The notes under the pieces: model-generated
What the model was told of the DNA's origin: nothing
The model's database searches: none
The model's input: only the letters and a program-made list of their open reading frames with translations
Shown here: positions 37,283 through 47,546 of the stretch, one piece after another
Numbering within the stretch: position 1 is the stretch's first letter
Layout of the letters: the number at the start of each line of letters is the position of its first letter
Translations under genes and position numbers: made by a program
NCBI GenBank assembly: GCA_965368465.1
Contig: CBDUMZ010000005.1
Span: 35,596-99,595 of the forward strand
Source: an uncultured Chromatiales bacterium
Lineage (GTDB): Bacteria > Pseudomonadota > Gammaproteobacteria > Steroidobacterales > Woeseiaceae
DNA: 64,000 nucleotides
Reading direction: 5' to 3'

Positions 37283-38934
37283 GCTTGCGCCTCTTCAGTG
37301 GCCGGTTCATCGATCATCTCGATCGCGTGACACGGACACTGTTCGTAACACACGGCACATCCCGTGCACTTGTCGAAATCAAATTTGTAGCGCTTACCTT
37401 TACCCAGCTTGATGATCGCATCCTGCGGGCAGGCGCCGTAGCAACCGTCGCACTCGAAGCAGTTGCCGCACGACAGGCAGCGCCTCGCCTCGAACAATGC
37501 TTCCTCTTCGCTCAGGTTTTGCAGAACCTCGTCAAAGCCCTTGCCCCGTCGCTCGATCGGCAGGCGTTGCTGCTCTTTCCGCGGCGCATCGGTGCGATAC
37601 CACAGGTGCAGGCGCTCATGCCCGATAATGTCGTTGCGCGGTCCGCGCGTGTACTTGGCGTCGTTCAGGAACGCATCGATATGTCGCGCTGCGTGCTTGC
37701 CGTGACCTACGGCAATCGTCACCGAGCGATCGCTGGGCACCATGTCACCGCCGGCAAAGATCCCGGGATGGCCCGTCATCATGTTGTCATCGACGACAAC
37801 CGTGTGGTCCCATTCGAACTTGATACCGGGTACAGACTCGAGGAAGGCTGTATCCGTATCCTGCCCGAGAGCCAGGATCAGCGAATCGGCTTCGAGCTCT
37901 TCGAACTTGCCCGTCGGTTGTGGGCGACGATTCTCGTCGAGCTCCATGATCTCGACCTTGAACGTCGACTTGTCGATCTCGTTGATCGTTCGCAGCCAGT
38001 TGATCTTGACGCCCTCTTCGAGCGCCTCGTCGGCCTCGAAGTCGTGCGCCGGCATGCTGCTGCGGTCACGCCGATAGATGATCATTGTCTCGGCACCGAG
38101 ACGCTTCGCCGTCCTGGCAGCATCCATTGCCGTGTTGCCACCGCCGTAGACAGCGACTCGACGACCCAGGAGTGGCGCCTCACCTTTGTTCGCCTCGCTC
38201 AGGAACGACACGGCATCGAGGATCTTGCCGGCATCGCGGTTCGGGATCTCGATCTTCTTGCTGATGTGTGCCCCGACGGCAACGAAGATTGCGTCGAATT
38301 TGCCCTCTTCCTTTTCCTTGAGCACGTCCTCGACACGATGATTGAGCGTAATTTTCACGCCCATGTTCTCGATGCGATCGATCTCGGCCGCCAGTTCGGC
38401 GCGCGGCATCCGGTACGCCGGGATACCGAAGTGAATCATGCCACCGGCTACCGGCCCGGCCTCACGGATCTCGACGTCGTGACCAAACCTGGTCAGGTGA
38501 TACGCGGCAGAAAGCCCGCTCGGGCCCGCGCCGACGATCAGGATCTTCTTGCCGGACTGCGTTGCCGGTTTTTCAAACTGCCAGCCTTTCTCCAGCGCGA
38601 GGTCGCCGAGGAATCGCTCGACGGCGTGAATGCTGACCGTGCTGTCGGTATGGATGCGATTGCAGGCATCTTCACACGGGTGGTAGCAAACGCGGCCATG
38701 AATCGATGGCATCGGGTTGTTGCGCACCAGCTCACGCCAGGCCGCTTCGTACTCGCCGTCCTGGGCAAGCGCAAGCCAGGCCTGGATATTCTCACCGGCC
38801 GGGCAGGCATTGTTACAAGGTGGAAGAAAATCGACGTACTGGGGACGGCGCGTGCGCAGCGCTCCCGTACCTCGGCCGTGGCGCGTCAGGTCCGCGCGCT
38901 GTGTCAGGTCTTTGGTATTCATAGTCGGGGCCAA
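37279..38934 (-). CDS. GltD-like NAD(P)H-dependent FAD oxidoreductase with a C-terminal 2x[4Fe-4S] ferredoxin domain
   Basis: N-terminal Fe-S region (CNNACPAGENI...CYHPCEDAC), GAGPSGLSAAY and YGGGNTAMD dinucleotide folds, and C-terminal CLSCGNCFECDGCYGACP/CTGCAVCYEQCP. Its stop overlaps the nifJ start (ATGA). Confidence 0.88.
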   Translation of the reverse strand: MAPTMNTKDLTQRADLTRHGRGTGALRTRRPQYVDFLPPCNNACPAGENIQAWLALAQDGEYEAAWRELVRNNPMPSIHGRVCYHPCEDACNRIHTDSTVSIHAVERFLGDLALEKGWQFEKPATQSGKKILIVGAGPSGLSAAYHLTRFGHDVEIREAGPVAGGMIHFGIPAYRMPRAELAAEIDRIENMGVKITLNHRVEDVLKEKEEGKFDAIFVAVGAHISKKIEIPNRDAGKILDAVSFLSEANKGEAPLLGRRVAVYGGGNTAMDAARTAKRLGAETMIIYRRDRSSMPAHDFEADEALEEGVKINWLRTINEIDKSTFKVEIMELDENRRPQPTGKFEELEADSLILALGQDTDTAFLESVPGIKFEWDHTVVVDDNMMTGHPGIFAGGDMVPSDRSVTIAVGHGKHAARHIDAFLNDAKYTRGPRNDIIGHERLHLWYRTDAPRKEQQRLPIERRGKGFDEVLQNLSEEEALFEARRCLSCGNCFECDGCYGACPQDAIIKLGKGKRYKFDFDKCTGCAVCYEQCPCHAIEMIDEPATEEAQA

Positions 38935-38983
38935 TACTAGCTGCCGGGTATCGCAGCAGCATCAGTACTATTACTATCTGAAT

Positions 38984-40384
38984 GTGACTTGCCGAATCTT
39001 GATTTTTCTGTGCTTTTTGCCGTTAACTTGCGCACTCTCGCCGACGGCAATCGGTAACAATTGCAACAATTGCCACGTGCAGGAACGGGCGGGGTTTTCG
39101 GCGGCACACGAATTTGCCGCGGACAACTGCACGATCTGTCACGGCGGCGATGGCGCCGCCGTTTCTGAAAACGCCGCGCACGAGGGCATGACCGGTTTCC
39201 CGGGCCTCCTCGGCAATGCAGCCGGGGCATGCGGTAGCTGCCACGCCGACAAGGTCGCGTCGGTTGGCGACAGCCTGATGCACACGGGCCTCGGCATGGT
39301 CGACGTTACGCGTCGGCTCGTGGACGGCGACGCCGGTGAGCACGCAAGCCTGCAATCGCTCGGCCACGGCCCGGCCGATTCGATGCTGCGCAAACTCTGT
39401 GCAAGCTGTCACCTCGGGCAGGACAAGACCGCTCATGCCCTGGACCCGGTATTCGATCGCGGCGGCGGCTGCCTTGCCTGTCACATCAACGCCTACCCCG
39501 CGGACGCGCACCCTGCCCTGACGGCCGATGTCTCCGACGCACGCTGTTTCGGTTGTCACTCGCGCTCCGCGAGAATTTCACTCAGCTACACAGGGCTCGG
39601 CGAGATTGACGCTGTGACAGCAGCCGGCAAGGAGTCGCGACTGCGTCTGCCAGATGGTCGCCACCTGGAACGCAAACCGGCGGACGTGCACTTCACTGCT
39701 GGCATGACCTGCACCGCGTGTCACAAGGGCGCCGACATCATGAGCGCCGCAGGCGATGCCCGGCACCAGCGCGACGCCGTTGCCGCGCGCTGCGACGACT
39801 GCCACGCAATCGAGCACGCAGCAGGTTCAGTGCACGACCCCGAGCATGTACGCCTTGAATGCGCCGCCTGTCACAGCCAATGGGTACCGCAGTGTTTCGG
39901 CTGTCACATGGAATACGATCCTGACGGAGTCCAGTGGGATCATGTCGAACAACGGGAAACGGCAGGACGATGGCATGAACGGCGGTCCGAGTTTCGCAAC
40001 GAACTCGGCGCGCTCGGCGTCAATGCCCACGACCGTATCGAGCTGTTCACACCCGGCATGATCATGACGCTCGCGCACCCGGACTGGGACAGCGAGAAAT
40101 TCGTGCGGGCGTTTGCGCCCATCTCTCCGCACACCATCGGCCCGGCCCGTTCCTGCGAGTCCTGTCACCGCTCGAGTGTCGCACTGGGGCTCGGCGAAGG
40201 AACGATTGAGTTGCGCGACGGTACGCTGCGCTTCACGCCGACGCGGCCAACGCTGCGCGATGGCTTGCCGGTCGACGCATGGACGAACATCGACGGCAGC
40301 CTTGGCGGTGTCGCCGCGCGACCCGGGCAACGGCCGCTTGACGAAGAAGAAATGGAAGCGGTGCTCGCGGCACCGCTGGACTAG
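38984..40384 (+). CDS. Multihaem c-type cytochrome (11 CXXCH motifs)
   Basis: CNNCH, CTICH, CGSCH, CASCH, CLACH, CFGCH, CTACH, CDDCH, CAACH, CFGCH, CESCH. Hydrophobic N-terminus VTCRILIFLCFLPLTCALS. The start is uncertain (GTG 38984). The track's ATG at 38717 lies inside the divergent gene. Confidence 0.85.
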   Translation: MTCRILIFLCFLPLTCALSPTAIGNNCNNCHVQERAGFSAAHEFAADNCTICHGGDGAAVSENAAHEGMTGFPGLLGNAAGACGSCHADKVASVGDSLMHTGLGMVDVTRRLVDGDAGEHASLQSLGHGPADSMLRKLCASCHLGQDKTAHALDPVFDRGGGCLACHINAYPADAHPALTADVSDARCFGCHSRSARISLSYTGLGEIDAVTAAGKESRLRLPDGRHLERKPADVHFTAGMTCTACHKGADIMSAAGDARHQRDAVAARCDDCHAIEHAAGSVHDPEHVRLECAACHSQWVPQCFGCHMEYDPDGVQWDHVEQRETAGRWHERRSEFRNELGALGVNAHDRIELFTPGMIMTLAHPDWDSEKFVRAFAPISPHTIGPARSCESCHRSSVALGLGEGTIELRDGTLRFTPTRPTLRDGLPVDAWTNIDGSLGGVAARPGQRPLDEEEMEAVLAAPLD

Positions 40385-40393
40385 CCGCCGCGG

Positions 40394-41014
40394 TCAGCAG
40401 CCCTCTTCGGGCGGGGGCGCCAGTTCCTCGAATGCCTCTTCGGACGCTTCGATGACCGGCGGCACGAACGGCTTCCTGGCCGGCAGTTCTGCGGCACCCG
40501 CTCGTTCTCCGACAAAGTAGCAGCTGTAGGCGCGCTGCTCCGACACCTGCAGGCTCTCACCGTCGAGCGCTTCGGCCGAGATATCGGGATTGAGAATCTT
40601 CTCGTGCCAGGCCCGGTACCCGCCAACCAGCAAGTGGGCATCGAATCCTGCCAGTCGCAGCAAGACCGCCGCCTTGGCCGCGTTTTCGGAGCCGTTCGAA
40701 TACACGAGCAGCATACGATTCGTGGGCAAGCGCGCCAGGGTCTCCGCGGCGACGATTTGCGCGATCGGGATGTTCTCCGCGTCCCCTATGCTGCCGTTCT
40801 CAAAATCCTCGGCACCGCGAACGTCAATGAGCTTGAAGTCACTGCGCCCTTCGATCAGCCAGGTCGCCAGTTCTTCGACACTCGCGCGGTCGTCCTGCCT
40901 TGCCGCTGCCTGGGCGACGGCATCCATCGAAATACCCGGTTCTCCGGATGGACCGCACGCCGTAACGGACGCGACTGAAAGGGACAGCAACGTGGCCTTA
41001 AGGGTTTTCTTCAT
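40394..41014 (-). CDS. Rhodanese-domain lipoprotein with a degenerate active-site loop and a Cys-containing C-terminal tail
   Basis: Lipobox SVASVTACG. Rhodanese fold (LIDVRGAEDFENGSIGDAENIP...LLVYSNGSENAAKAAVLL...GGYRAWHE), with Ser in place of the catalytic Cys. The ~70-aa tail ends in EEGC. Confidence 0.8.
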   Translation of the reverse strand: MKKTLKATLLSLSVASVTACGPSGEPGISMDAVAQAAARQDDRASVEELATWLIEGRSDFKLIDVRGAEDFENGSIGDAENIPIAQIVAAETLARLPTNRMLLVYSNGSENAAKAAVLLRLAGFDAHLLVGGYRAWHEKILNPDISAEALDGESLQVSEQRAYSCYFVGERAGAAELPARKPFVPPVIEASEEAFEELAPPPEEGC

Positions 41015-42005
41015 GCAAACGCTCCAGCAATTCTGAACTGTATTGGGTTTCGTAGTGTGTCCAGGTGCTCTCCTGCCCGGCATCCAGCACAACCTGCCGC
41101 AACGCATACCCGCCGACGATGACAAGAACCGGCGCGAGCATGGCCAGCGATTTGCTGACGCCCGATATTTCCAGCACCTCGAGTAGCAAAGGTATCAGGA
41201 GGCCGATGGATACGAAGAACAGCCAGAACTCAAGAGTGTACGGACCGCCCATGATACTTTGCAACGCCACGATATGCTGGCCGGATCCCGAGGCAAGACT
41301 GATGAGCATGAGCGCCACCAGGCCGATCTCGGCCAGGATCAGGACCAGGTCGATCCGCGTGAACAGCTCTTTCTCGGCATGCTTTTTCGCAACGAGAATG
41401 ACCATGGCCGCCGCCGTGGACATGCCCGACACGAGGAACAGGATACCGAGCACGCCGGAATTCCAGAACGGTCGCGCGCCGAATGCGCTCAGCAGGATGC
41501 CCGTGTAGATGCCGAGCGCCACGGCGAACGGAATCACCGCCAGCGCGATCTGCATGCGCTTGCGCTCGCACCAGTCCACCAGCGTCCTGCCAATCGCAAA
41601 CCTGTCTACAAGGGAGGCGAGCGCCGGGTAGCCTGCGCGAATCGTCGACAGTATCTGCAGTACCGATATCGGGTAGACCACGATAAGAATCCAGGCGCCC
41701 CAGGACATCGGCGACGTGATCTTGAACGCGGTGTAAAACCGGTAGACATACAGCTTGTGCTCGAGATCGAGAAACAGGGTCGTCATACCGATCGACAGCA
41801 GGATGGGCGCAAACAACGCGAGGCGAGTCGCCGTGAACGGCGCCACCTGCTCCTTGCCGCGGGCAATCGCCAGCGCCGCGAAGATCATGACACCGGCCGT
41901 GAGGCCGCCCATGAACAGGTACATGGCCACTTCCCAGGTCCAGATATGCAGGCCCGGGTCGATCAGCTCATTCGACCTGGCTGTGACAAACAGTTCTTCT
42001 GTCAT
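40998..42005 (-). CDS. NrfD/PsrC-family membrane anchor subunit
   Basis: 335 aa, ~9 TM. The N-terminal W-rich segment HIWTWEVAMYLFMGGLTAG is typical of NrfD/PsrC. Confidence 0.88.
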   Translation of the reverse strand: MTEELFVTARSNELIDPGLHIWTWEVAMYLFMGGLTAGVMIFAALAIARGKEQVAPFTATRLALFAPILLSIGMTTLFLDLEHKLYVYRFYTAFKITSPMSWGAWILIVVYPISVLQILSTIRAGYPALASLVDRFAIGRTLVDWCERKRMQIALAVIPFAVALGIYTGILLSAFGARPFWNSGVLGILFLVSGMSTAAAMVILVAKKHAEKELFTRIDLVLILAEIGLVALMLISLASGSGQHIVALQSIMGGPYTLEFWLFFVSIGLLIPLLLEVLEISGVSKSLAMLAPVLVIVGGYALRQVVLDAGQESTWTHYETQYSSELLERLHEENP

Positions 42006-42017
42006 TGTTCCAGGCCC

Positions 42018-42560
42018 CTATACCAGGTAATAGACATTGGGTTCATTGCCCGTCTCGGGTTTGAGTACCTTGTGGTCGCGCGTCTTCAGCAACTGGCTGA
42101 CCTTGCTGTGCGGGTCATCCAGCGTGCCGAAATACATGCACCCGGTCGGGCACGTCGACACGCAGGCCGGGTCCAGGCCTTTCTCGACCCGGTGGTGGCA
42201 GAACGTGCACTTGTCGATGTAGCCATCGGGATGCATGACGAGACGCGCGTCGTACGGGCAAGCCGCTATACAGGCTTTGCAGCCCGTGCACTTCTCGGGC
42301 TCGACGAGCACGATGTTCGTACCCTTCCAGAGGTGACTCGCGCCGGTCGGACACAGCGTGACGCAAGTCGGGTTCGAGCAATGATTGCAGCGCTCCGAAC
42401 GAAACTCGGTTTTGAGGTCGGGATAGGTGCCACTCGTCGCCTCGACAACCCAGTCCCTGTTCAGCCCTTCCGGAACGTTGTTCTCGGTCTTGCAGGCCAC
42501 CACACAGTCGCCGCAGCCGATGCAGGTGCGCGTATCGATGACCATGACAAAGCGCGTCAT
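42018..42560 (-). CDS. 4x[4Fe-4S] electron-transfer subunit (PsrB/DmsB-like)
   Basis: CIGCGDCVVAC, CNHCSNPTCVTLCP, CTGCKACIAACP, CTFCHHR...CVSTCP. Confidence 0.92.
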   Translation of the reverse strand: MTRFVMVIDTRTCIGCGDCVVACKTENNVPEGLNRDWVVEATSGTYPDLKTEFRSERCNHCSNPTCVTLCPTGASHLWKGTNIVLVEPEKCTGCKACIAACPYDARLVMHPDGYIDKCTFCHHRVEKGLDPACVSTCPTGCMYFGTLDDPHSKVSQLLKTRDHKVLKPETGNEPNVYYLV

Positions 42561-44761
42561 GCCGCACCTCCCGCTGCCGACTGCTTGATGAACGTGACGA
42601 AGTTACCGCGCATGCCGGTCCCACCCATGATCGGATCGACCTTCACGTTGGTCATCAACTCCGAGTCGTCGGCACCGGCACCTGCCGTCAGGCGCAGGCG
42701 TTTCGACTTGTGGCCGAAACCGTGCGCCATGAAGACTGAATCGGGCCCGATACGCTCCGTGACACGCACCCGGATCTTGCTGCTGACCGCGCCCTCGTAG
42801 GACGCGAGCTGCACATACTCGCCATTCTCAAGTCCGAAATCACTGGCCACGAGCGGGTTGACCCAGAGCTGGTTTTCCGGGGCGAGCTGGAAGAGCAACG
42901 GGTTGTTGGTCGTCTTGCCGAACGTATGCGCCGGCATGCGCCCGTAGTTGAGCCTGAAGAAACCTTGCGGGACAGGTTCCGGCGGCGTGTAGACCGGCAT
43001 CGGGTCGAAACCCTTGTCGGCAAGCTGCTGCGAGTACAGTTCGATCTTGCGACTCGGCGTGAAGAAACGCGCTTGTTCACCCTTGCGAAAATACAGCGGC
43101 CGCTTGCGTGGAAAATTCTTGACCCCGATCTTTTGCATTTCCGCGAGCGAACTGCCGACTTGTTTAAGCTCCCAGTCGAGCTTGTCGGCGTAGTCCTGCC
43201 ACGGGAAATACGCACCCAGGCCGAGCCGTTCGCCAAGCTGCTTGGCAATCCACCAACCGGGCTTGCTCTCGTACCTGGGTTCGAACGCCGGCATGCGCAG
43301 CGCCAGCGACGGCTGCCGCTCACCCGAATTACGAATGTCGTCGTAGCGTTCGAGGTAGGTGCACTCCGGCAGGATGACGTCGGCATAGCCCGTCATTTCG
43401 GACGGCATGGTTTCGACGACCACGACGAGGTCGAGCGAGTCGGCCGCGGCACGCAGTTTCGCCGCCACGCCTGGAATCGTCTGCGGCAGGTTGGTGCCGT
43501 ACACCATCCAACCCTTGAAGAACGCATCCTCACCGATGGACGCTTCGATGACGCCGTTCGTAACGCCCTGGCTTGCGAACGGCCACTTGCCCGGGTAAGC
43601 ATCACCGGTCCGCAGGCGCGGTGTCGGGTACTTTGGTAACGGGTAATGCGGCATAGCCACTTTTTCGGGGATGTAGAAACCGCCCTTGCGGTTCCAGCTG
43701 CCGAGCAGCGCATTGAGTATGGCGATCGCGCGGCTGCGTTGCGTGTCGTCGCCGTACCAGGTCGCGTGCCGGCCAGGGTGCACGACGGTTGCCGGAGCAG
43801 CCTTGCCCATCTCGCGTGCCGTTTCGCGAATCACGTCGGGTCGAATTCCGGTCTCGAGGAATACCCACTCGGGCGTGTACTGCCGCACGTGGTCCGCGAG
43901 TTGTTCAAAGCCGACCGTGTATTGCTCGACGTAGTCCTTGTCGTAGAGCTCCTCTTCGACAATCACGTTCATCCAGCCGAGCAGCAGCGCGATATCGGTG
44001 CCGGGCTTGATGGGAAGCCAGTGTTTCGACTTGCCCGCCGGCACCGAGAACCTCGGGTCGACGGTGATCAGCGTCGCATCCTTGTTGATCGCATCCGTTA
44101 ACGTCTGGACCTGGGCGTTATGCAGGTTCTCACCGATGTGCGATCCCAGCAGTACGATGCAGCGTGCATTCGCCATGTCGGTGCGTTCCGGTGAGCTGAC
44201 GGCTTCGCCGAAGGTCAGGCGGAAGCCGACGTCGCGTGGACCGCGGCATTGCGCGAAGGCCGGTTCGGCATGACTGTCGGAACCGTATGCACGCAAGAGA
44301 TGCAGGAAGTGATGACCGCCCGCGCCGTGATGCAGCAATGCCATGCGCTCCGGCCCCACCGTTTCTGCAATGCCCTGCATTTTCGTCGCGATGAACTGCA
44401 AAGCCTCATCCCAGGAGACCTCCTTGAAGGTCTGGCGCCCGTCGACCGTGACGCGCATCAGGGGTCTCTTCAGTCGATCGGGATCGAGGTAGGCGCCTGG
44501 CCCGCCCGTACCGCGCGTGCAAAGCCGGCCACCGCTGTGCAGATCGTCCGGATTGCCCGTGATCTTCCAGAGCTCACCATCCTCTTTGTAGACATCGCCC
44601 GCACATTTCCAGAAACACATGTCGCACACGGTCGGCGTCTTGCTGACGGTACCCGTTCCCGGCAGCGGCCTGCTCGCGCAGCCGCCCAGCATGAGCGCGG
44701 GCCCTGCCACGGCGCTGGTACCCAGCAACGATGAAAGCTTGATGAACTCGCGACGCTTCAT
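42557..44761 (-). CDS. Tat-exported molybdopterin oxidoreductase catalytic subunit (PsrA/PhsA/SrrA family)
   Basis: Twin-arginine signal MKRREFIKLSSLLG, N-terminal Fe-S motif CDMCFWKCAG...CTRG, 734 aa. Overlaps both flanking genes by 4 nt. Confidence 0.9.
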   Translation of the reverse strand: MKRREFIKLSSLLGTSAVAGPALMLGGCASRPLPGTGTVSKTPTVCDMCFWKCAGDVYKEDGELWKITGNPDDLHSGGRLCTRGTGGPGAYLDPDRLKRPLMRVTVDGRQTFKEVSWDEALQFIATKMQGIAETVGPERMALLHHGAGGHHFLHLLRAYGSDSHAEPAFAQCRGPRDVGFRLTFGEAVSSPERTDMANARCIVLLGSHIGENLHNAQVQTLTDAINKDATLITVDPRFSVPAGKSKHWLPIKPGTDIALLLGWMNVIVEEELYDKDYVEQYTVGFEQLADHVRQYTPEWVFLETGIRPDVIRETAREMGKAAPATVVHPGRHATWYGDDTQRSRAIAILNALLGSWNRKGGFYIPEKVAMPHYPLPKYPTPRLRTGDAYPGKWPFASQGVTNGVIEASIGEDAFFKGWMVYGTNLPQTIPGVAAKLRAAADSLDLVVVVETMPSEMTGYADVILPECTYLERYDDIRNSGERQPSLALRMPAFEPRYESKPGWWIAKQLGERLGLGAYFPWQDYADKLDWELKQVGSSLAEMQKIGVKNFPRKRPLYFRKGEQARFFTPSRKIELYSQQLADKGFDPMPVYTPPEPVPQGFFRLNYGRMPAHTFGKTTNNPLLFQLAPENQLWVNPLVASDFGLENGEYVQLASYEGAVSSKIRVRVTERIGPDSVFMAHGFGHKSKRLRLTAGAGADDSELMTNVKVDPIMGGTGMRGNFVTFIKQSAAGGAA

Positions 44762-45525
44762 GGGGCAACCTCGTTTATGCCGGCGCGCGGCACGATGTAG
44801 TACGGCGTCTCGACGGAGTCATCGATAAACGACTCGGTAGGAAAGAACGCGAAGACGATGCCGATCAGGACGGCCGTTACCACCAGTGCGCCCTGCAATT
44901 TCATGAAGGGCCGCGCTTTCGTCAGCGTGTCTTTCTGGCCCCAGACGAGGTCCTGCACGAAGATCATGGAGACCGTACCGACCACCGCGATGATCACCAT
45001 GATCAGGACCATTGGACCGAGGCCGATGCCCAGCCACTGGTCGAGCCGGAACGCACCCAGGTAGTTGCTGTTGTAAAAGTCGCCCCAGACCGGGAAGAAG
45101 TCGCCGAACACGAGGCTGCCGATCAGGAAACCGCCGACGAACACGATGCCGTCGATCTTGCCCGTGGCAACGGCGGCGATCGCCGTACCCGGGCAGTAGC
45201 CACCGATGACCATGCCGACGCCGAACAATACGCCGCCGACCGCCATCGGCAGGAGATAGGTCGGCAACATGTAGACGAGCGAGATATCCAGTACGCCAAT
45301 GAGGCTCAACCCCCAGAGACCGACCATGCCGGTCACGATGGCGGAGAACATGACGACCGGAACGCCCACATCCTTGAAATAGAACGCCCAGGCGATGCGG
45401 CGCGAATCGGTGAAGCCCGCATGGAACAGCGCGAAGCCAAATACGAAACCGATCGGGATCGCGAGCCACAGGTTCGCCGCGGCCGAGATGACGCCCGTCT
45501 TGGCAAGAGGAAATCCTAGATCCAT
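44758..45525 (-). CDS. YeeE/YedE-family sulfur/selenium transport protein, second half-transporter with C-terminal TM extension
   Basis: GGYCPGTA signature Cys motif. Start at Met22 of the track ORF (MDLGFPLAK), overlapping the upstream gene by 10 nt. Confidence 0.82.
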   Translation of the reverse strand: MDLGFPLAKTGVISAAANLWLAIPIGFVFGFALFHAGFTDSRRIAWAFYFKDVGVPVVMFSAIVTGMVGLWGLSLIGVLDISLVYMLPTYLLPMAVGGVLFGVGMVIGGYCPGTAIAAVATGKIDGIVFVGGFLIGSLVFGDFFPVWGDFYNSNYLGAFRLDQWLGIGLGPMVLIMVIIAVVGTVSMIFVQDLVWGQKDTLTKARPFMKLQGALVVTAVLIGIVFAFFPTESFIDDSVETPYYIVPRAGINEVAP

Positions 45526-46028
45526 TGTTTTCTCACAAACCAGGCGACCAGCCAGCCACCGACAAAAACACACATGAGGAAAGTCCATGCACCAACCGAG
45601 AGTTCGGCGCCGCCGACGAGGCCCTGCCCGCTGGTGCAGCCGCGTGCGAGACGCGCCGCAAAACCGGAGATGACGCCGCCGACCAGTGCCAGCATCAGGC
45701 GGTTCCGGGGCGAGATGTTCGGTCCGCGCAGGACCTCGAAACGCAGCTCGCCGGTGCGCCAGGCTGCCACGAATGCACCGATGAGCAAGCCGACCAGCAG
45801 GAACACGACGTAGTCATTGAGCGGGTGGGCACCATCGGCAAAATAGCGGCCGAAGTACGCGCTTTGCTCGGTTGCCGTCGGGAACAGGCCGTGCTGAACC
45901 CAGGCGACCAGGCGCGTCATCGCCCCGCTCGCACCGATTCCGCGGCCCGCGACGACGAACGCGAGTAACATGCTAATACCAATCAGAATGCCCGCTGGGA
46001 TTGGCGGCCAACGTGTCCCGAACTTCAT
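45516..46028 (-). CDS. YeeE/YedE-family sulfur/selenium transport protein, first half-transporter
   Basis: 170 aa, 4 TM, signature ARGCTSGQG motif. Confidence 0.85.
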   Translation of the reverse strand: MKFGTRWPPIPAGILIGISMLLAFVVAGRGIGASGAMTRLVAWVQHGLFPTATEQSAYFGRYFADGAHPLNDYVVFLLVGLLIGAFVAAWRTGELRFEVLRGPNISPRNRLMLALVGGVISGFAARLARGCTSGQGLVGGAELSVGAWTFLMCVFVGGWLVAWFVRKQWI

Positions 46029-46151
46029 CCTGTACTCCTAAACATGGCCGAATTCGGCGAGTTGAGGCGACTATACATTAGTAAAAACTAATTTAAAGGC
46101 AGTAGTTTCCCGTATCTTTAAAAGTTTCTTCTGCAACTAATATTCCCTGTT

Positions 46152-47546
46152 ATGAAGACGATCATCGAACCCTTCCGTATCAAGATGGTCGAGCCCATCA
46201 AGCTCACCACGCGCGAAGAGCGCGAACAGCTGATTCGCAAGGCACACAACAACACCTTCCTGCTGCGCGCCGAGGACGTCATCATCGATCTCCTCACGGA
46301 CTCCGGCACCAGCGCCATGTCATCGGATGCCTGGGGCGCGCTGATGCGTGGCGACGAGTCGTACGCGGGCGCGCGCAGCTGGTACCGGTTTCGCGATACC
46401 GTGAAGGACATTTTCGGTTTCAAGCAGGTCATTCCGACGCACCAGGGGCGTGCCGCCGAGCACATCCTGTTCGGCGTCATGGTGAAACCCGGGTCGCTGG
46501 TCCCGAACAACACGCACTTCGATACGACGCGCGGCAACATCGACTTTGTCGGCGGCAAACCCATCGACCTGCCCTGCAAGGAAGCCAGTGACCTCGACTC
46601 CGACTTCCCGTTCAAGGGCAACATGGATACCGAGGCCCTGGAGGCGCTGGTTGCCGAGCATGGCCCCGAGAAGATCCCGGTCATCATGATCACTGTCACC
46701 AACAACTCTGGCGGTGGGCAGCCGGTCTCGATGGCCAACATCCGCGAGGTGAGCCGTATCGCGCGGGAAGCCGGCATTCCTTTCTATATCGATGCCTGCC
46801 GATTCGCTGAGAACTCGCACTTCATCAAGCGCCGCGAAGAAGGTTACAAGGATGTCGCCACGATAGAGATCGCGCGCGAGATGTTCGGCTATGCCGACGG
46901 CTGCACGATGTCGGCCAAGAAGGATTCGTTTGCCAATATCGGCGGCTTCCTCTGTACCAACGATGCCGAACTTGCGAGCCGGGAACGGAACATCCTGATC
47001 ATGACAGAAGGGTTTCCAACCTACGGCGGGCTGGCCGGCCGTGATCTCGAAGCGATCGCCGTCGGTTTGCGCGAGACGCTCGATGAAAACTACCTGGACT
47101 ACCGCCTGCTTTCGACGCGCTATGTCGTAAGACACCTTGTCGAGGCCGGTATCCCCGTCATGTCGCCTGCCGGCGGCCATGCCGTGTATCTCGATGCGCG
47201 TCGCTTCCTCCCGCACATCGAGCCTCTCCAGTACCCGGGCCAGGCGCTCAGCGTGGAGCTGTACATCGAAGCCGGCATCCGAACCGCTGAAATCGGCACC
47301 GTGATGTTTGGCCTCGACCCGCAAACGGGCGAAGAAAAACCCGCACGCCTCGACCTGTTGCGCCTCGCGATTCCACGCCGTGTCTACACGCAAAGCCATA
47401 TGGACTATGTGCTCGAGGCGATTCAGCGGGTCTGGGAACGACGCGCCGCGATACGCGGCATGAAGATCGTGAAAGCCCCGCAGTTCCTGCGGCACTTCAC
47501 GGCGCATTTTGAATGGGTACAGGTCGGCGGTTCTAAAAGCCCGTAA
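46152..47546 (+). CDS. PLP-dependent beta-eliminating lyase (tryptophanase / tyrosine phenol-lyase family)
   Basis: EPFRIKMVEP, IDLLTDSGTSAMS, VIPTHQGRAAE, GGGQPVSMANI, YADGCTMSAKKD (PLP Lys), GGHAVYLDA, LAIPRRVYT. Signature segments are mixed between TnaA and Tpl as I remember them. Confidence 0.88.
   Translation: MKTIIEPFRIKMVEPIKLTTREEREQLIRKAHNNTFLLRAEDVIIDLLTDSGTSAMSSDAWGALMRGDESYAGARSWYRFRDTVKDIFGFKQVIPTHQGRAAEHILFGVMVKPGSLVPNNTHFDTTRGNIDFVGGKPIDLPCKEASDLDSDFPFKGNMDTEALEALVAEHGPEKIPVIMITVTNNSGGGQPVSMANIREVSRIAREAGIPFYIDACRFAENSHFIKRREEGYKDVATIEIAREMFGYADGCTMSAKKDSFANIGGFLCTNDAELASRERNILIMTEGFPTYGGLAGRDLEAIAVGLRETLDENYLDYRLLSTRYVVRHLVEAGIPVMSPAGGHAVYLDARRFLPHIEPLQYPGQALSVELYIEAGIRTAEIGTVMFGLDPQTGEEKPARLDLLRLAIPRRVYTQSHMDYVLEAIQRVWERRAAIRGMKIVKAPQFLRHFTAHFEWVQVGGSKSP

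Follow-up and report, generated by a model that had tools for sequence, protein, structure and literature searches.

We analysed a 64,000-nucleotide stretch of DNA, hereafter the window, from an uncultured marine-sediment bacterium of the gammaproteobacterial family Woeseiaceae (GenBank assembly GCA_965368465.1, contig CBDUMZ010000005.1, positions 35,596 to 99,595). The subject of this report is a set of six minus-strand open reading frames (ORFs) at 40394–46028 in window numbering, in which a molybdoenzyme resembling polysulfide reductase (Psr) is encoded together with a two-piece YeeE-family channel and a rhodanese-fold lipoprotein. The set begins with YeeE1 (45516–46028, 170 amino acids), a PmpA-like half-channel corresponding to the C-terminal half of YeeE/TsuA (Pfam PF04143 positions 173–310), and YeeE2 (44758–45525, 255 amino acids), a PmpB-like half-channel corresponding to the N-terminal half (PF04143 positions 14–192, plus DUF6691). 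These are followed by PsrA (42557–44761, 734 amino acids), a predicted catalytic subunit exported by twin-arginine translocation (Tat) and carrying a molybdenum bis(pyranopterin guanosine dinucleotide) cofactor (Mo-bisPGD; PF04879, PF00384, PF01568); PsrB (42018–42560, 180 amino acids), a four-cluster [4Fe-4S] electron-transfer subunit (Pfam Fer4_11 and others); and PsrC (40998–42005, 335 amino acids), an NrfD-type integral membrane anchor (PF03916, E 1.7e-44). The last gene, Rhd (40394–41014, 206 amino acids), encodes the rhodanese-fold lipoprotein (PF00581).

Neighbouring ORFs overlap or lie at most 12 nt apart. Junctions were computed with the start codons chosen in the first-pass annotation of this DNA, which was made from the sequence letters alone (YeeE2 ATG at 45525, Rhd ATG at 41014). 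YeeE1 and YeeE2 overlap by 10 nt (ATGGATCTAG), YeeE2/PsrA and PsrA/PsrB each share a 4-nt ATGA-type overlap, PsrB and PsrC are separated by a 12-nt gap, and PsrC and Rhd overlap by 17 nt. Upstream lies a 123-nt intergenic control region (46029–46151, minus strand), common to a divergent tryptophanase-like gene, and the sigma-70-like site at 46097–46070 upstream of YeeE1 is the only one within 38800–46400. Directly after the Rhd stop codon, a terminator-like hairpin with a T-run (40357–40377, minus strand) is located within the 3' end of a convergent cytochrome gene. The first-pass annotation had called a six-gene operon at this position, and its ORFs, strand, coordinates and junctions were all reproduced, with Pfam and NCBIfam domains that fit.

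The molybdoenzyme, the split channel and the rhodanese-fold protein

PsrA begins with an RREFIK Tat motif followed by a lipobox-like LGGC motif. Its best solved relative by sequence is Thermus thermophilus PsrA (PDB 2VPW; E 1.7e-191, 641 bits), with the next PDB match at 172 bits, and its identity is 43–46% to PsrA of Thermus-type loci (tblastn) and 31–32% to Salmonella and E. coli PhsA. The Mo ligand Cys173, together with His145, Arg332 and Arg81 (Thermus numbering), is invariant in 187 of 187 sequences from three clades, and Salmonella PhsA deviates at positions 145 and 332. His145 and Arg332 reportedly have catalytic roles (Jormakka et al. 2008). As in complex iron–sulfur molybdoenzymes of the Psr/Phs/Srr type, PsrA combines the Tat motif with Fe4S4, molybdopterin and molybdopterin guanine dinucleotide domains and a Cys aligned with Thermus Cys173, and genes for a four-cluster ferredoxin and an NrfD/PsrC-type anchor adjoin psrA. 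The anchor is of the quinol-interacting NrfD type, with 8–9 hydrophobic segments by hydropathy and no haem motifs. These features mark the window enzyme as a predicted member of the Thermus PsrABC family, a molybdoenzyme that faces the periplasm and is linked to quinol.

The top NCBIfam match of PsrA is the PhsA equivalog NF012032, at 464 bits under a cut-off of 694, and the TtrA and ArrA models score it far lower than this, ArrA giving 136 bits against a cut-off of 1600. The NCBIfam matches of PsrB are of the ArrB/NrfC/TtrB/DsrO type and all fall under cut-off, including ArrB at 177 bits against 450. A flag for an in-frame TGA in PsrA of two congeners was examined as possible selenocysteine and rejected, since the codon is the genuine stop, past which the aligner had read. 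The authors of the Caldithrix abyssi study hold a TorD-type chaperone to be required (PMC5317091). No TorD-family chaperone was found in the window genome, and the same search was negative in a Thermus control genome, whose Psr was nevertheless crystallised with its cofactor. We therefore rejected TorD as a requirement and do not regard its absence as evidence of a dead enzyme.

YeeE1 and YeeE2 are two adjacent genes corresponding to the C- and N-terminal halves of PF04143 with one conserved Cys each, the arrangement of PmpAB/YedE1E2, and we assign them by sequence as the two halves of a channel of that type. YeeE1 Cys131 (ARGCTSGQ), invariant in 52 homologues, aligns with Cys293 of TsuA (PDB 6LEO), a crystallised thiosulfate importer. 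YeeE2 Cys111 (GGYCPGT) is invariant in 62 homologues and is equated with TsuA Cys91 solely from the GG-x-C-x-G motif and its register in Pfam. YeeE2 also carries about 100 extra C-terminal residues with two more hydrophobic segments in a hydropathy scan. The window genome encodes no further member of the YeeE family. In the literature, PmpB and PmpA correspond to the N- and C-terminal halves of YeeE, a heterodimer of the two being probable (PMC11582611), and two-piece YedE1E2 facilitates zero-valent sulfur uptake (PMC10812762).

The product of the last gene proved the most informative of the six. The first-pass annotation had named it a periplasmic rhodanese; the rhodanese-fold lipoprotein stands, with a ..VTAC lipobox, but a rhodanese enzyme it is probably not, because the catalytic Cys is absent and replaced by Ser (YSNGSE). 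Among 41 aligned homologues, Y105 and S106 are nearly invariant, and D64, R66, W136, F167, P186 and the last residue, C206, are invariant. The window protein closes with a coil tail of some 36 residues, the last of them Cys206 (..PPPEEGC). Across all loci, Cys is the last residue in 120 of 121 homologues, and in 53 the mature protein has no other Cys. The tail that follows the core is 41 residues long at the median (range 4–98), with an abundance of Pro, Ala, Gly, Lys and Glu. An AlphaFold2 model gives the core (about residues 30–170) a predicted local distance difference test (pLDDT) score above 90 and shows the tail as coil at pLDDT 52–76.

Foldseek searches returned single-domain rhodaneses. 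In profile searches, the Cys-less Alr3790 domain is the closest Cys-less analogue, and Sud (PDB 1QXN) is found at E 5.9e-7; Rhd shares with Sud the exported single-domain rhodanese fold and lacks the catalytic Cys that opens the active-site loop. Since proteobacterial copies have a lipobox and those of other phyla an N-terminal signal-anchor helix, the domain appears to be tethered at the periplasmic face in either case. Fusions of this domain to the C-terminus of YeeE2 occur in at least 16 loci and still end in ..KKREGC or ..VVGGC, which argues for a direct functional link between arm and channel. Taken together, the loss of the catalytic Cys and the conserved terminal Cys suggest that Rhd is a Cys-tipped carrier. 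Our literature search found no paper describing either feature.

These features bear on thiosulfate as a substrate. A thiosulfate reductase combined with uptake, as Williams 2022 suggests for this gene cluster (PMC9324843), would cleave thiosulfate in a Phs-like manner in the periplasm while the YeeE pair imports thiosulfate or the reduction product. The top PhsA match and the role of YeeE/TsuA as a thiosulfate importer agree with this, as does the finding that thiosulfate stimulates the fermentative growth of C. abyssi, with sulfide formed (PMC5317091). We nevertheless consider it improbable: the PhsA score and the identity to Salmonella PhsA are low, PsrA departs from PhsA at Thermus positions 145 and 332, and the window anchor is NrfD-type whereas that of Salmonella, PhsC, carries the annotation cytochrome b subunit. 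Moreover, a rhodanese fold deprived of its catalytic loop Cys is ill-suited to thiosulfate chemistry, and the operon holds no TsuB/YeeD partner gene.

Recurrence, carriers and gene neighbourhoods

The relationships of the enzyme were assessed in a 67-row PsrA tree rooted on Salmonella PhsA, with Thermus PsrA and Salmonella PhsA as its only named references. Window PsrA falls in clade A, which comprises Proteobacteria and a Bacteroidota/Lentisphaeria branch. Clade A joins clade C (SH-like approximate likelihood ratio test, SH-aLRT, 93), which holds Ignavibacteriota, Acidobacteriota, Verrucomicrobiota, Bacteroidota, Gemmatimonadota, Myxococcota, Planctomycetota and some Proteobacteria; clade C PsrA is about 54% identical to window PsrA. 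Clades A and C together are sister to clade B, formed by Thermus/Deinococcota and Bipolaricaulota/Thermotogae (SH-aLRT 94). An earlier 110-row tree returned the three clades as a trichotomy. The LGGC motif, or L-T-G-C, after the Tat signal of PsrA (window 44678–44761) is conserved in the proteobacterial clade and absent from clade C and Thermus PsrA, which suggests from sequence that the proteobacterial catalytic subunit is a Tat-exported lipoprotein.

Recurrence was assessed in three locus scans on contigs from one genome per species, counting only loci with enough flanking sequence. Among 53 loci of window-PsrA relatives, all six genes are present in 45, Rhd in 52 and a multihaem-cytochrome match in 44. 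Clade C loci carry the complete set in 57 of 58 cases, in the order PsrABC-YeeE1-YeeE2-Rhd, and an alignment query for this clade gave at least 599 genome matches. Over clades A and C, all six genes, including the YeeE pair and a Cys-less, Cys-terminated rhodanese, occur in 102 of 111 loci. Carried by sediment, soil and groundwater bacteria from more than 10 phyla, the gene set comes in two orders; the YeeE genes stand first in the proteobacterial one, to which the window belongs. Given its recurrence in 45 of 53 and 57 of 58 loci, the arrangement is far beyond chance, and the first-pass proposal of a reductase hard-wired both to a split YeeE channel and to a lipoprotein with a rhodanese fold is thereby borne out. 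PsrABC, channel and tethered rhodanese fold show tight, ancient co-inheritance.

The partner proteins change together. Thermus-type loci have YeeE genes in 0 of 24 cases, and their secreted rhodanese has a normal catalytic Cys (e.g. ..IIYCGIGHRG..) and no terminal Cys. Gammaproteobacterial loci without the YeeE pair, such as those of Wenzhouxiangella, carry upstream of PsrA an extra periplasmic multi-rhodanese of about 496 amino acids with the catalytic Cys motifs FYCGGPTC and TYCSNGIRS (loci L040, L048, L050 and L057–L061), and most of them still retain the Cys-terminated Rhd gene.

Five Ignavibacteriales/Melioribacteraceae loci (L142, L154, L157, L170 and L180) have a second YeeE1-YeeE2(-Rhd) set upstream of PsrA, and in loci of this type the YeeE2 of the upstream set carries a fused rhodanese domain that terminates in ..VVGGC. 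These second sets suggest tandem modules.

Among the cultured carriers are Melioribacter roseus, Melioribacter sp. OK-6-Me, Stygiobacter electus 09-Me, Sinimarinibacterium sp. CAU 1509 and Chondrinema litorale WSW3-B12. The last, a Bacteroidota strain, has PsrABC-YeeE-YeeE followed by two rhodanese-like genes (locus L125) on a 310-kb plasmid (NZ_CP111047, 246578–252515). This plasmid module adjoins an IS4 transposase, and its names in the Prokaryotic Genome Annotation Pipeline (PGAP) are generic. Mixed taxa within clade C, the occurrence on a plasmid and the patchiness of the distribution argue for lateral spread of the whole module.

One cultured carrier has been linked to arsenic. According to Gavrilov 2017, the Psr/Phs-type gene MROS_1774 of M. 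roseus, which follows the MerR-like MROS_1773, shows strong induction by arsenate in reverse transcription quantitative PCR (RT-qPCR) and is proposed to encode an arsenate reductase, M. roseus having no ArrA (PMC5492636). On this basis, PsrABC would be a respiratory arsenate reductase acting on periplasmic As(V), with the Cys-tipped protein and the Cys-lined channel handling As(III) or thioarsenic. A locus from an M. roseus metagenome-assembled genome (MAG; L147, clade C) carries the same MerR gene followed by PsrABC-YeeE1-YeeE2-Rhd, and Cys-rich MerR genes (38 loci) or ArsR genes (6 loci) precede clade C operons. This reading is unlikely in our judgement. The evidence is RT-qPCR only and comes from clade C rather than from the window lineage; PsrA scores far under the ArrA cut-off; no conserved ars genes occur in the flanks of about 190 loci; and the sulfur-family channel would be left without an obvious role. 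Arsenate could moreover react with a sulfide or cysteine reductant, assumed here to be part of the M. roseus medium, to make sulfane sulfur and so induce the operon indirectly.

The genome to which the window belongs is 95.7% complete. Window PsrA is its only Psr-like enzyme, and its close homologues are labelled Woeseiaceae or 'uncultured Gammaproteobacteria', including one MAG contig that is 99% identical. The only other match to the PhsA model (contig C7, 79922–81517) was rejected as a second sulfur reductase, being a 945-residue NuoG-fused formate dehydrogenase alpha subunit (TIGR01591, 921 bits) that adjoins a NuoF-like gene. PsrA was found in 5 of 120 other sampled genomes of the family, all from the same genus, indicating an accessory, patchily distributed trait. 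The genome encodes one TusA, and dsrA, aprA, soxB and selD gave no match above curated cut-offs. Sulfur disproportionation, in which periplasmic reduction would be combined with import for cytoplasmic oxidation, was accordingly rejected for this genome, given the lack of dsrA, aprA and soxB matches.

The same genes weigh on the possibility that the complex runs in the oxidative direction, oxidising sulfide to sulfane sulfur at the quinone level, with the product taken by the arm and brought in through the channel to be oxidised in the cytoplasm. The module is found in sulfur oxidisers such as Thiobacillaceae, Thiogranum and Thiohalobacter, and SoxT-type YeeE proteins import sulfur for oxidation (PMC11582611). 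With no dsrA, aprA or soxB above cut-off in the window genome and many carriers being organoheterotrophs (e.g. Ignavibacteriota, Acidobacteriota), we consider this direction very improbable. It also fits less well with the neighbourhood of Thiobacillaceae-type loci (L026, L027, L029, L036, L041, L052 and L063), where an uptake [NiFe] hydrogenase, encoded as large and small subunits, cytochrome b and maturation protease, lies directly upstream of YeeE1 and is better explained by reduction.

Clustering of the flanks of about 170 loci revealed no further broadly conserved neighbours and only lineage-specific ones: hydrogenase, MerR, ArsR, MobA, Rieske, cytochrome b–multihaem fusions and FadL-type channels. 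In clade C, besides the regulators, these are the cytochrome b–multihaem fusion (24 loci), MobA (16), FadL/TodX (13) and Rieske proteins (12). The FadL/TodX-family outer-membrane channels adjoin the module in those 13 loci (including L155 11610–12875 and L168 4351–5844) and, judged by family, could admit hydrophobic S8. In the window, the divergent plus-strand gene (46152–47546) encodes a beta-eliminating lyase that reaches 705 bits on the NCBIfam tryptophanase subfamily model and falls under the equivalog cut-offs for TnaA and tyrosine phenol-lyase. It was rejected as a part of the module because it adjoins the operon in the nearest relatives only.

The convergent plus-strand gene (38984–40384), identified with Pfam and NCBIfam, encodes an 11-haem cytochrome c and lies outside the operon, yet it is a conserved neighbour, and its homologue is co-directional with the module in Wenzhouxiangella and many clade C loci. 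It is distantly related to Geobacter ExtM, with 166 bits on NCBIfam NF040943 (cut-off 800), and NCBIfam files ExtM under 'selenite/tellurite reduction operon'. The Geobacter Ext cluster also includes a rhodanese lipoprotein, ExtH (PMC5877670).

This cytochrome match is one of the observations that bring selenite or tellurite into view, as the substrate of a respiratory reductase like Srr, the Psr-clade selenite reductase with rhodanese accessory proteins, or as a source of selenium acquired reductively through a YedE-like channel. YeeE1 does match the YedE/FdhT model (NCBIfam NF033796), although at 54 bits against a cut-off of 350. That low score and the lack of selD above cut-off led us to reject selenium acquisition as the principal function. 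We consider selenite or tellurite in either role very unlikely, given also that the operon has no SrrD-like chaperone and no large SrrE/F-type rhodaneses, and that the Ext cluster has since been linked to respiration of elemental sulfur (S0) or polysulfide via the selenoprotein MccSep (PMC13510729).

A proposed sulfane-sulfur reductase with a tethered carrier

We propose, with a probability of roughly 45%, that the operon encodes a Psr/Sud-like sulfane-sulfur reductase in which the carrier thiol has moved to a tethered arm serving both PsrA and the channel. PsrB and the NrfD-type PsrC are predicted to link PsrA to the quinone pool. In this model, the tail Cys of Rhd would accept sulfane sulfur from elemental sulfur or polysulfide and hold it as a persulfide or polysulfide, thereby doing the job of the active-site Cys in the Sud-like rhodaneses of Wolinella and Thermus-type Psr systems. 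The tail could then swing between two stations, the active-site funnel of PsrA and the outer mouth of the YeeE1/YeeE2 channel. At the funnel, the bound sulfur would be reduced to sulfide by quinol electrons; at the channel mouth, it would cross the inner membrane, most likely inward as in characterised family members. The whole unit may thus act as an electron sink for sulfur compounds or as a respiratory reductase with built-in sulfur trafficking.

Several observations are consistent with this proposal. The Psr/Sud-like character is favoured by the placement of PsrA with Thermus, in PDB score, sister-clade position and invariant residues, and by the correlated switch in which a YeeE pair accompanies a Cys-less rhodanese fold and YeeE-less loci keep a catalytic Cys. 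The terminal Cys, the coil tail and the YeeE2::Rhd fusions count for a carrier arm. The alignment of Cys131 with TsuA Cys293, together with zero-valent sulfur uptake by YedE1E2, counts for a sulfur channel. Finally, the hydrogenase, the ExtM-like cytochromes, the Rieske proteins, the cytochrome b fusions, the FadL-type channels and the sulfur-related tie of the Ext cluster are consistent with sulfur respiration.

We tentatively extend the proposal one step further, with clearly less confidence. The physiological substrate of PsrA may be no free ion at all; it may be the sulfane sulfur on the terminal Cys of the arm, so that enzyme, arm and channel would form one machine coupling quinol oxidation to inner-membrane movement of sulfur, or of another thiol-bound chalcogen or metalloid. 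To our knowledge, no protein-carrier-dependent respiratory reductase has been described for the Mo-bisPGD family.

A number of points weigh against the sulfane-sulfur proposal. No activity has been reported for any member of clade A or C, the operon holds no gene for a cytoplasmic sulfur acceptor, and the genome, lacking dsrA, aprA and soxB above cut-off, offers no obvious fate for imported sulfur. The direction of transport and the contact between the tail and PsrA are purely inferred. The strongest reasons for caution come from cultured organisms: C. abyssi, reported to have a homologous cluster, respires neither S0 nor thiosulfate with H2 or acetate, although both compounds stimulate its fermentation and are reduced to sulfide (Kublanov et al. 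2017, PMC5317091), and the M. roseus orthologue is arsenate-induced and a proposed arsenate reductase.

The question matters beyond this locus. Psr/Phs-type genes are routine metagenomic markers of polysulfide or thiosulfate respiration, and the sub-family described here is very common, with accessory genes systematically unlike the textbook Psr/Sud pair. Its cultured carriers deviate from the marker's prediction, M. roseus in responding to arsenate and C. abyssi, with its reported cluster, in showing no sulfur respiration. Current annotations probably misstate the function of the module. If the substrate is indeed a protein-bound persulfide wired to a channel, sulfur-cycle and possibly arsenic-cycle annotations of many MAGs would need revision, and the module would provide a concrete, testable handle on how sulfane sulfur passes across the inner membrane. 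Because several cultured strains carry it, a direct experimental test is feasible.

Comparison with known systems

The first-pass annotation did not recognise the combination as a described system, and this holds with respect to biochemistry, for which we found no literature; as a gene cluster, however, it had been noted before. Williams 2022 reports 'phsABC followed by pmpA/B and a sulfurtransferase' in C. abyssi and two candidate phyla, with Ca. Electryonea clarkiae as well as Ca. Lernaella stagnicola among the carriers, records one PmpA/B–sulfurtransferase fusion and leaves the function open (PMC9324843). An M. roseus orthologue was expression-profiled by Gavrilov 2017, as described above. 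The gene content in both reports equals that of the window, and the passages concerned assign no function to the accessory genes and are silent on both the loss of the catalytic Cys and the Cys at the end of the tail. The gene set is recorded in two genome papers, widespread, and biochemically uncharacterised.

With respect to the Srr system, operon composition is what sets the enzymes apart, since PsrA, PhsA and SrrA are inseparable by phylogeny and separable only by operon content (PMC12949373). This agrees with the first-pass statement that the substrate cannot be read from the sequence. The likeness to Srr drawn there proved loose: Bacillus selenitireducens SrrABCDEF, like the window system, combines a Psr-clade molybdoenzyme with rhodanese-domain accessory proteins, but its operon contains srrABC, the chaperone SrrD and two large rhodanese proteins of 38 and 45 kDa, SrrE and SrrF, with no YeeE (PMC12481199). 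The window has instead one 22-kDa Cys-less rhodanese fold and a YeeE pair with no chaperone-like gene, in a genome with no selD above cut-off.

Compared with PmpAB/YedE1E2, which shares the split arrangement, the window halves are longer (170 and 255 amino acids against about 130) and lie within a respiratory Mo-enzyme operon, whereas PmpAB/YedE1E2 genes stand beside persulfide dioxygenase or BigR-type genes. The fusion of such halves to a Cys-tipped rhodanese domain, seen in relatives of the window system, also distinguishes them from PmpAB/YedE1E2.

The nearest characterised enzyme is Thermus thermophilus PsrABC (PDB 2VPW–2VPZ). It resembles the window system in full-length PsrA homology, in a PsrB 51–57% identical, in the Mo-ligand Cys with the three other invariant residues, in a periplasmic rhodanese-fold partner and in its sister-clade position. 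The catalytic subunit is therefore not placed inside a characterised clade whose operons carry these accessory genes: Thermus-type loci are without YeeE halves, and their secreted rhodanese keeps its catalytic Cys and has no Cys-terminated tail. In addition, Thermus PsrC has no recognisable similarity to window PsrC in tblastn, and window PsrA, unlike the Thermus protein, has the lipobox-like LGGC after its Tat motif.

The paradigm of polysulfide respiration is PsrABC with Sud in Wolinella succinogenes (PDB 1QXN for Sud). As in the window, a periplasmic Mo enzyme is accompanied there by a single-domain rhodanese-fold sulfur carrier. Sud uses a Cys of its active-site loop, however, whereas the window protein has Ser at that place and bears its thiol on the last residue of a tethered protein. 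By its predicted components, the window system is best described as a Psr/Sud-type system in which the carrier thiol has been relocated and a channel added.

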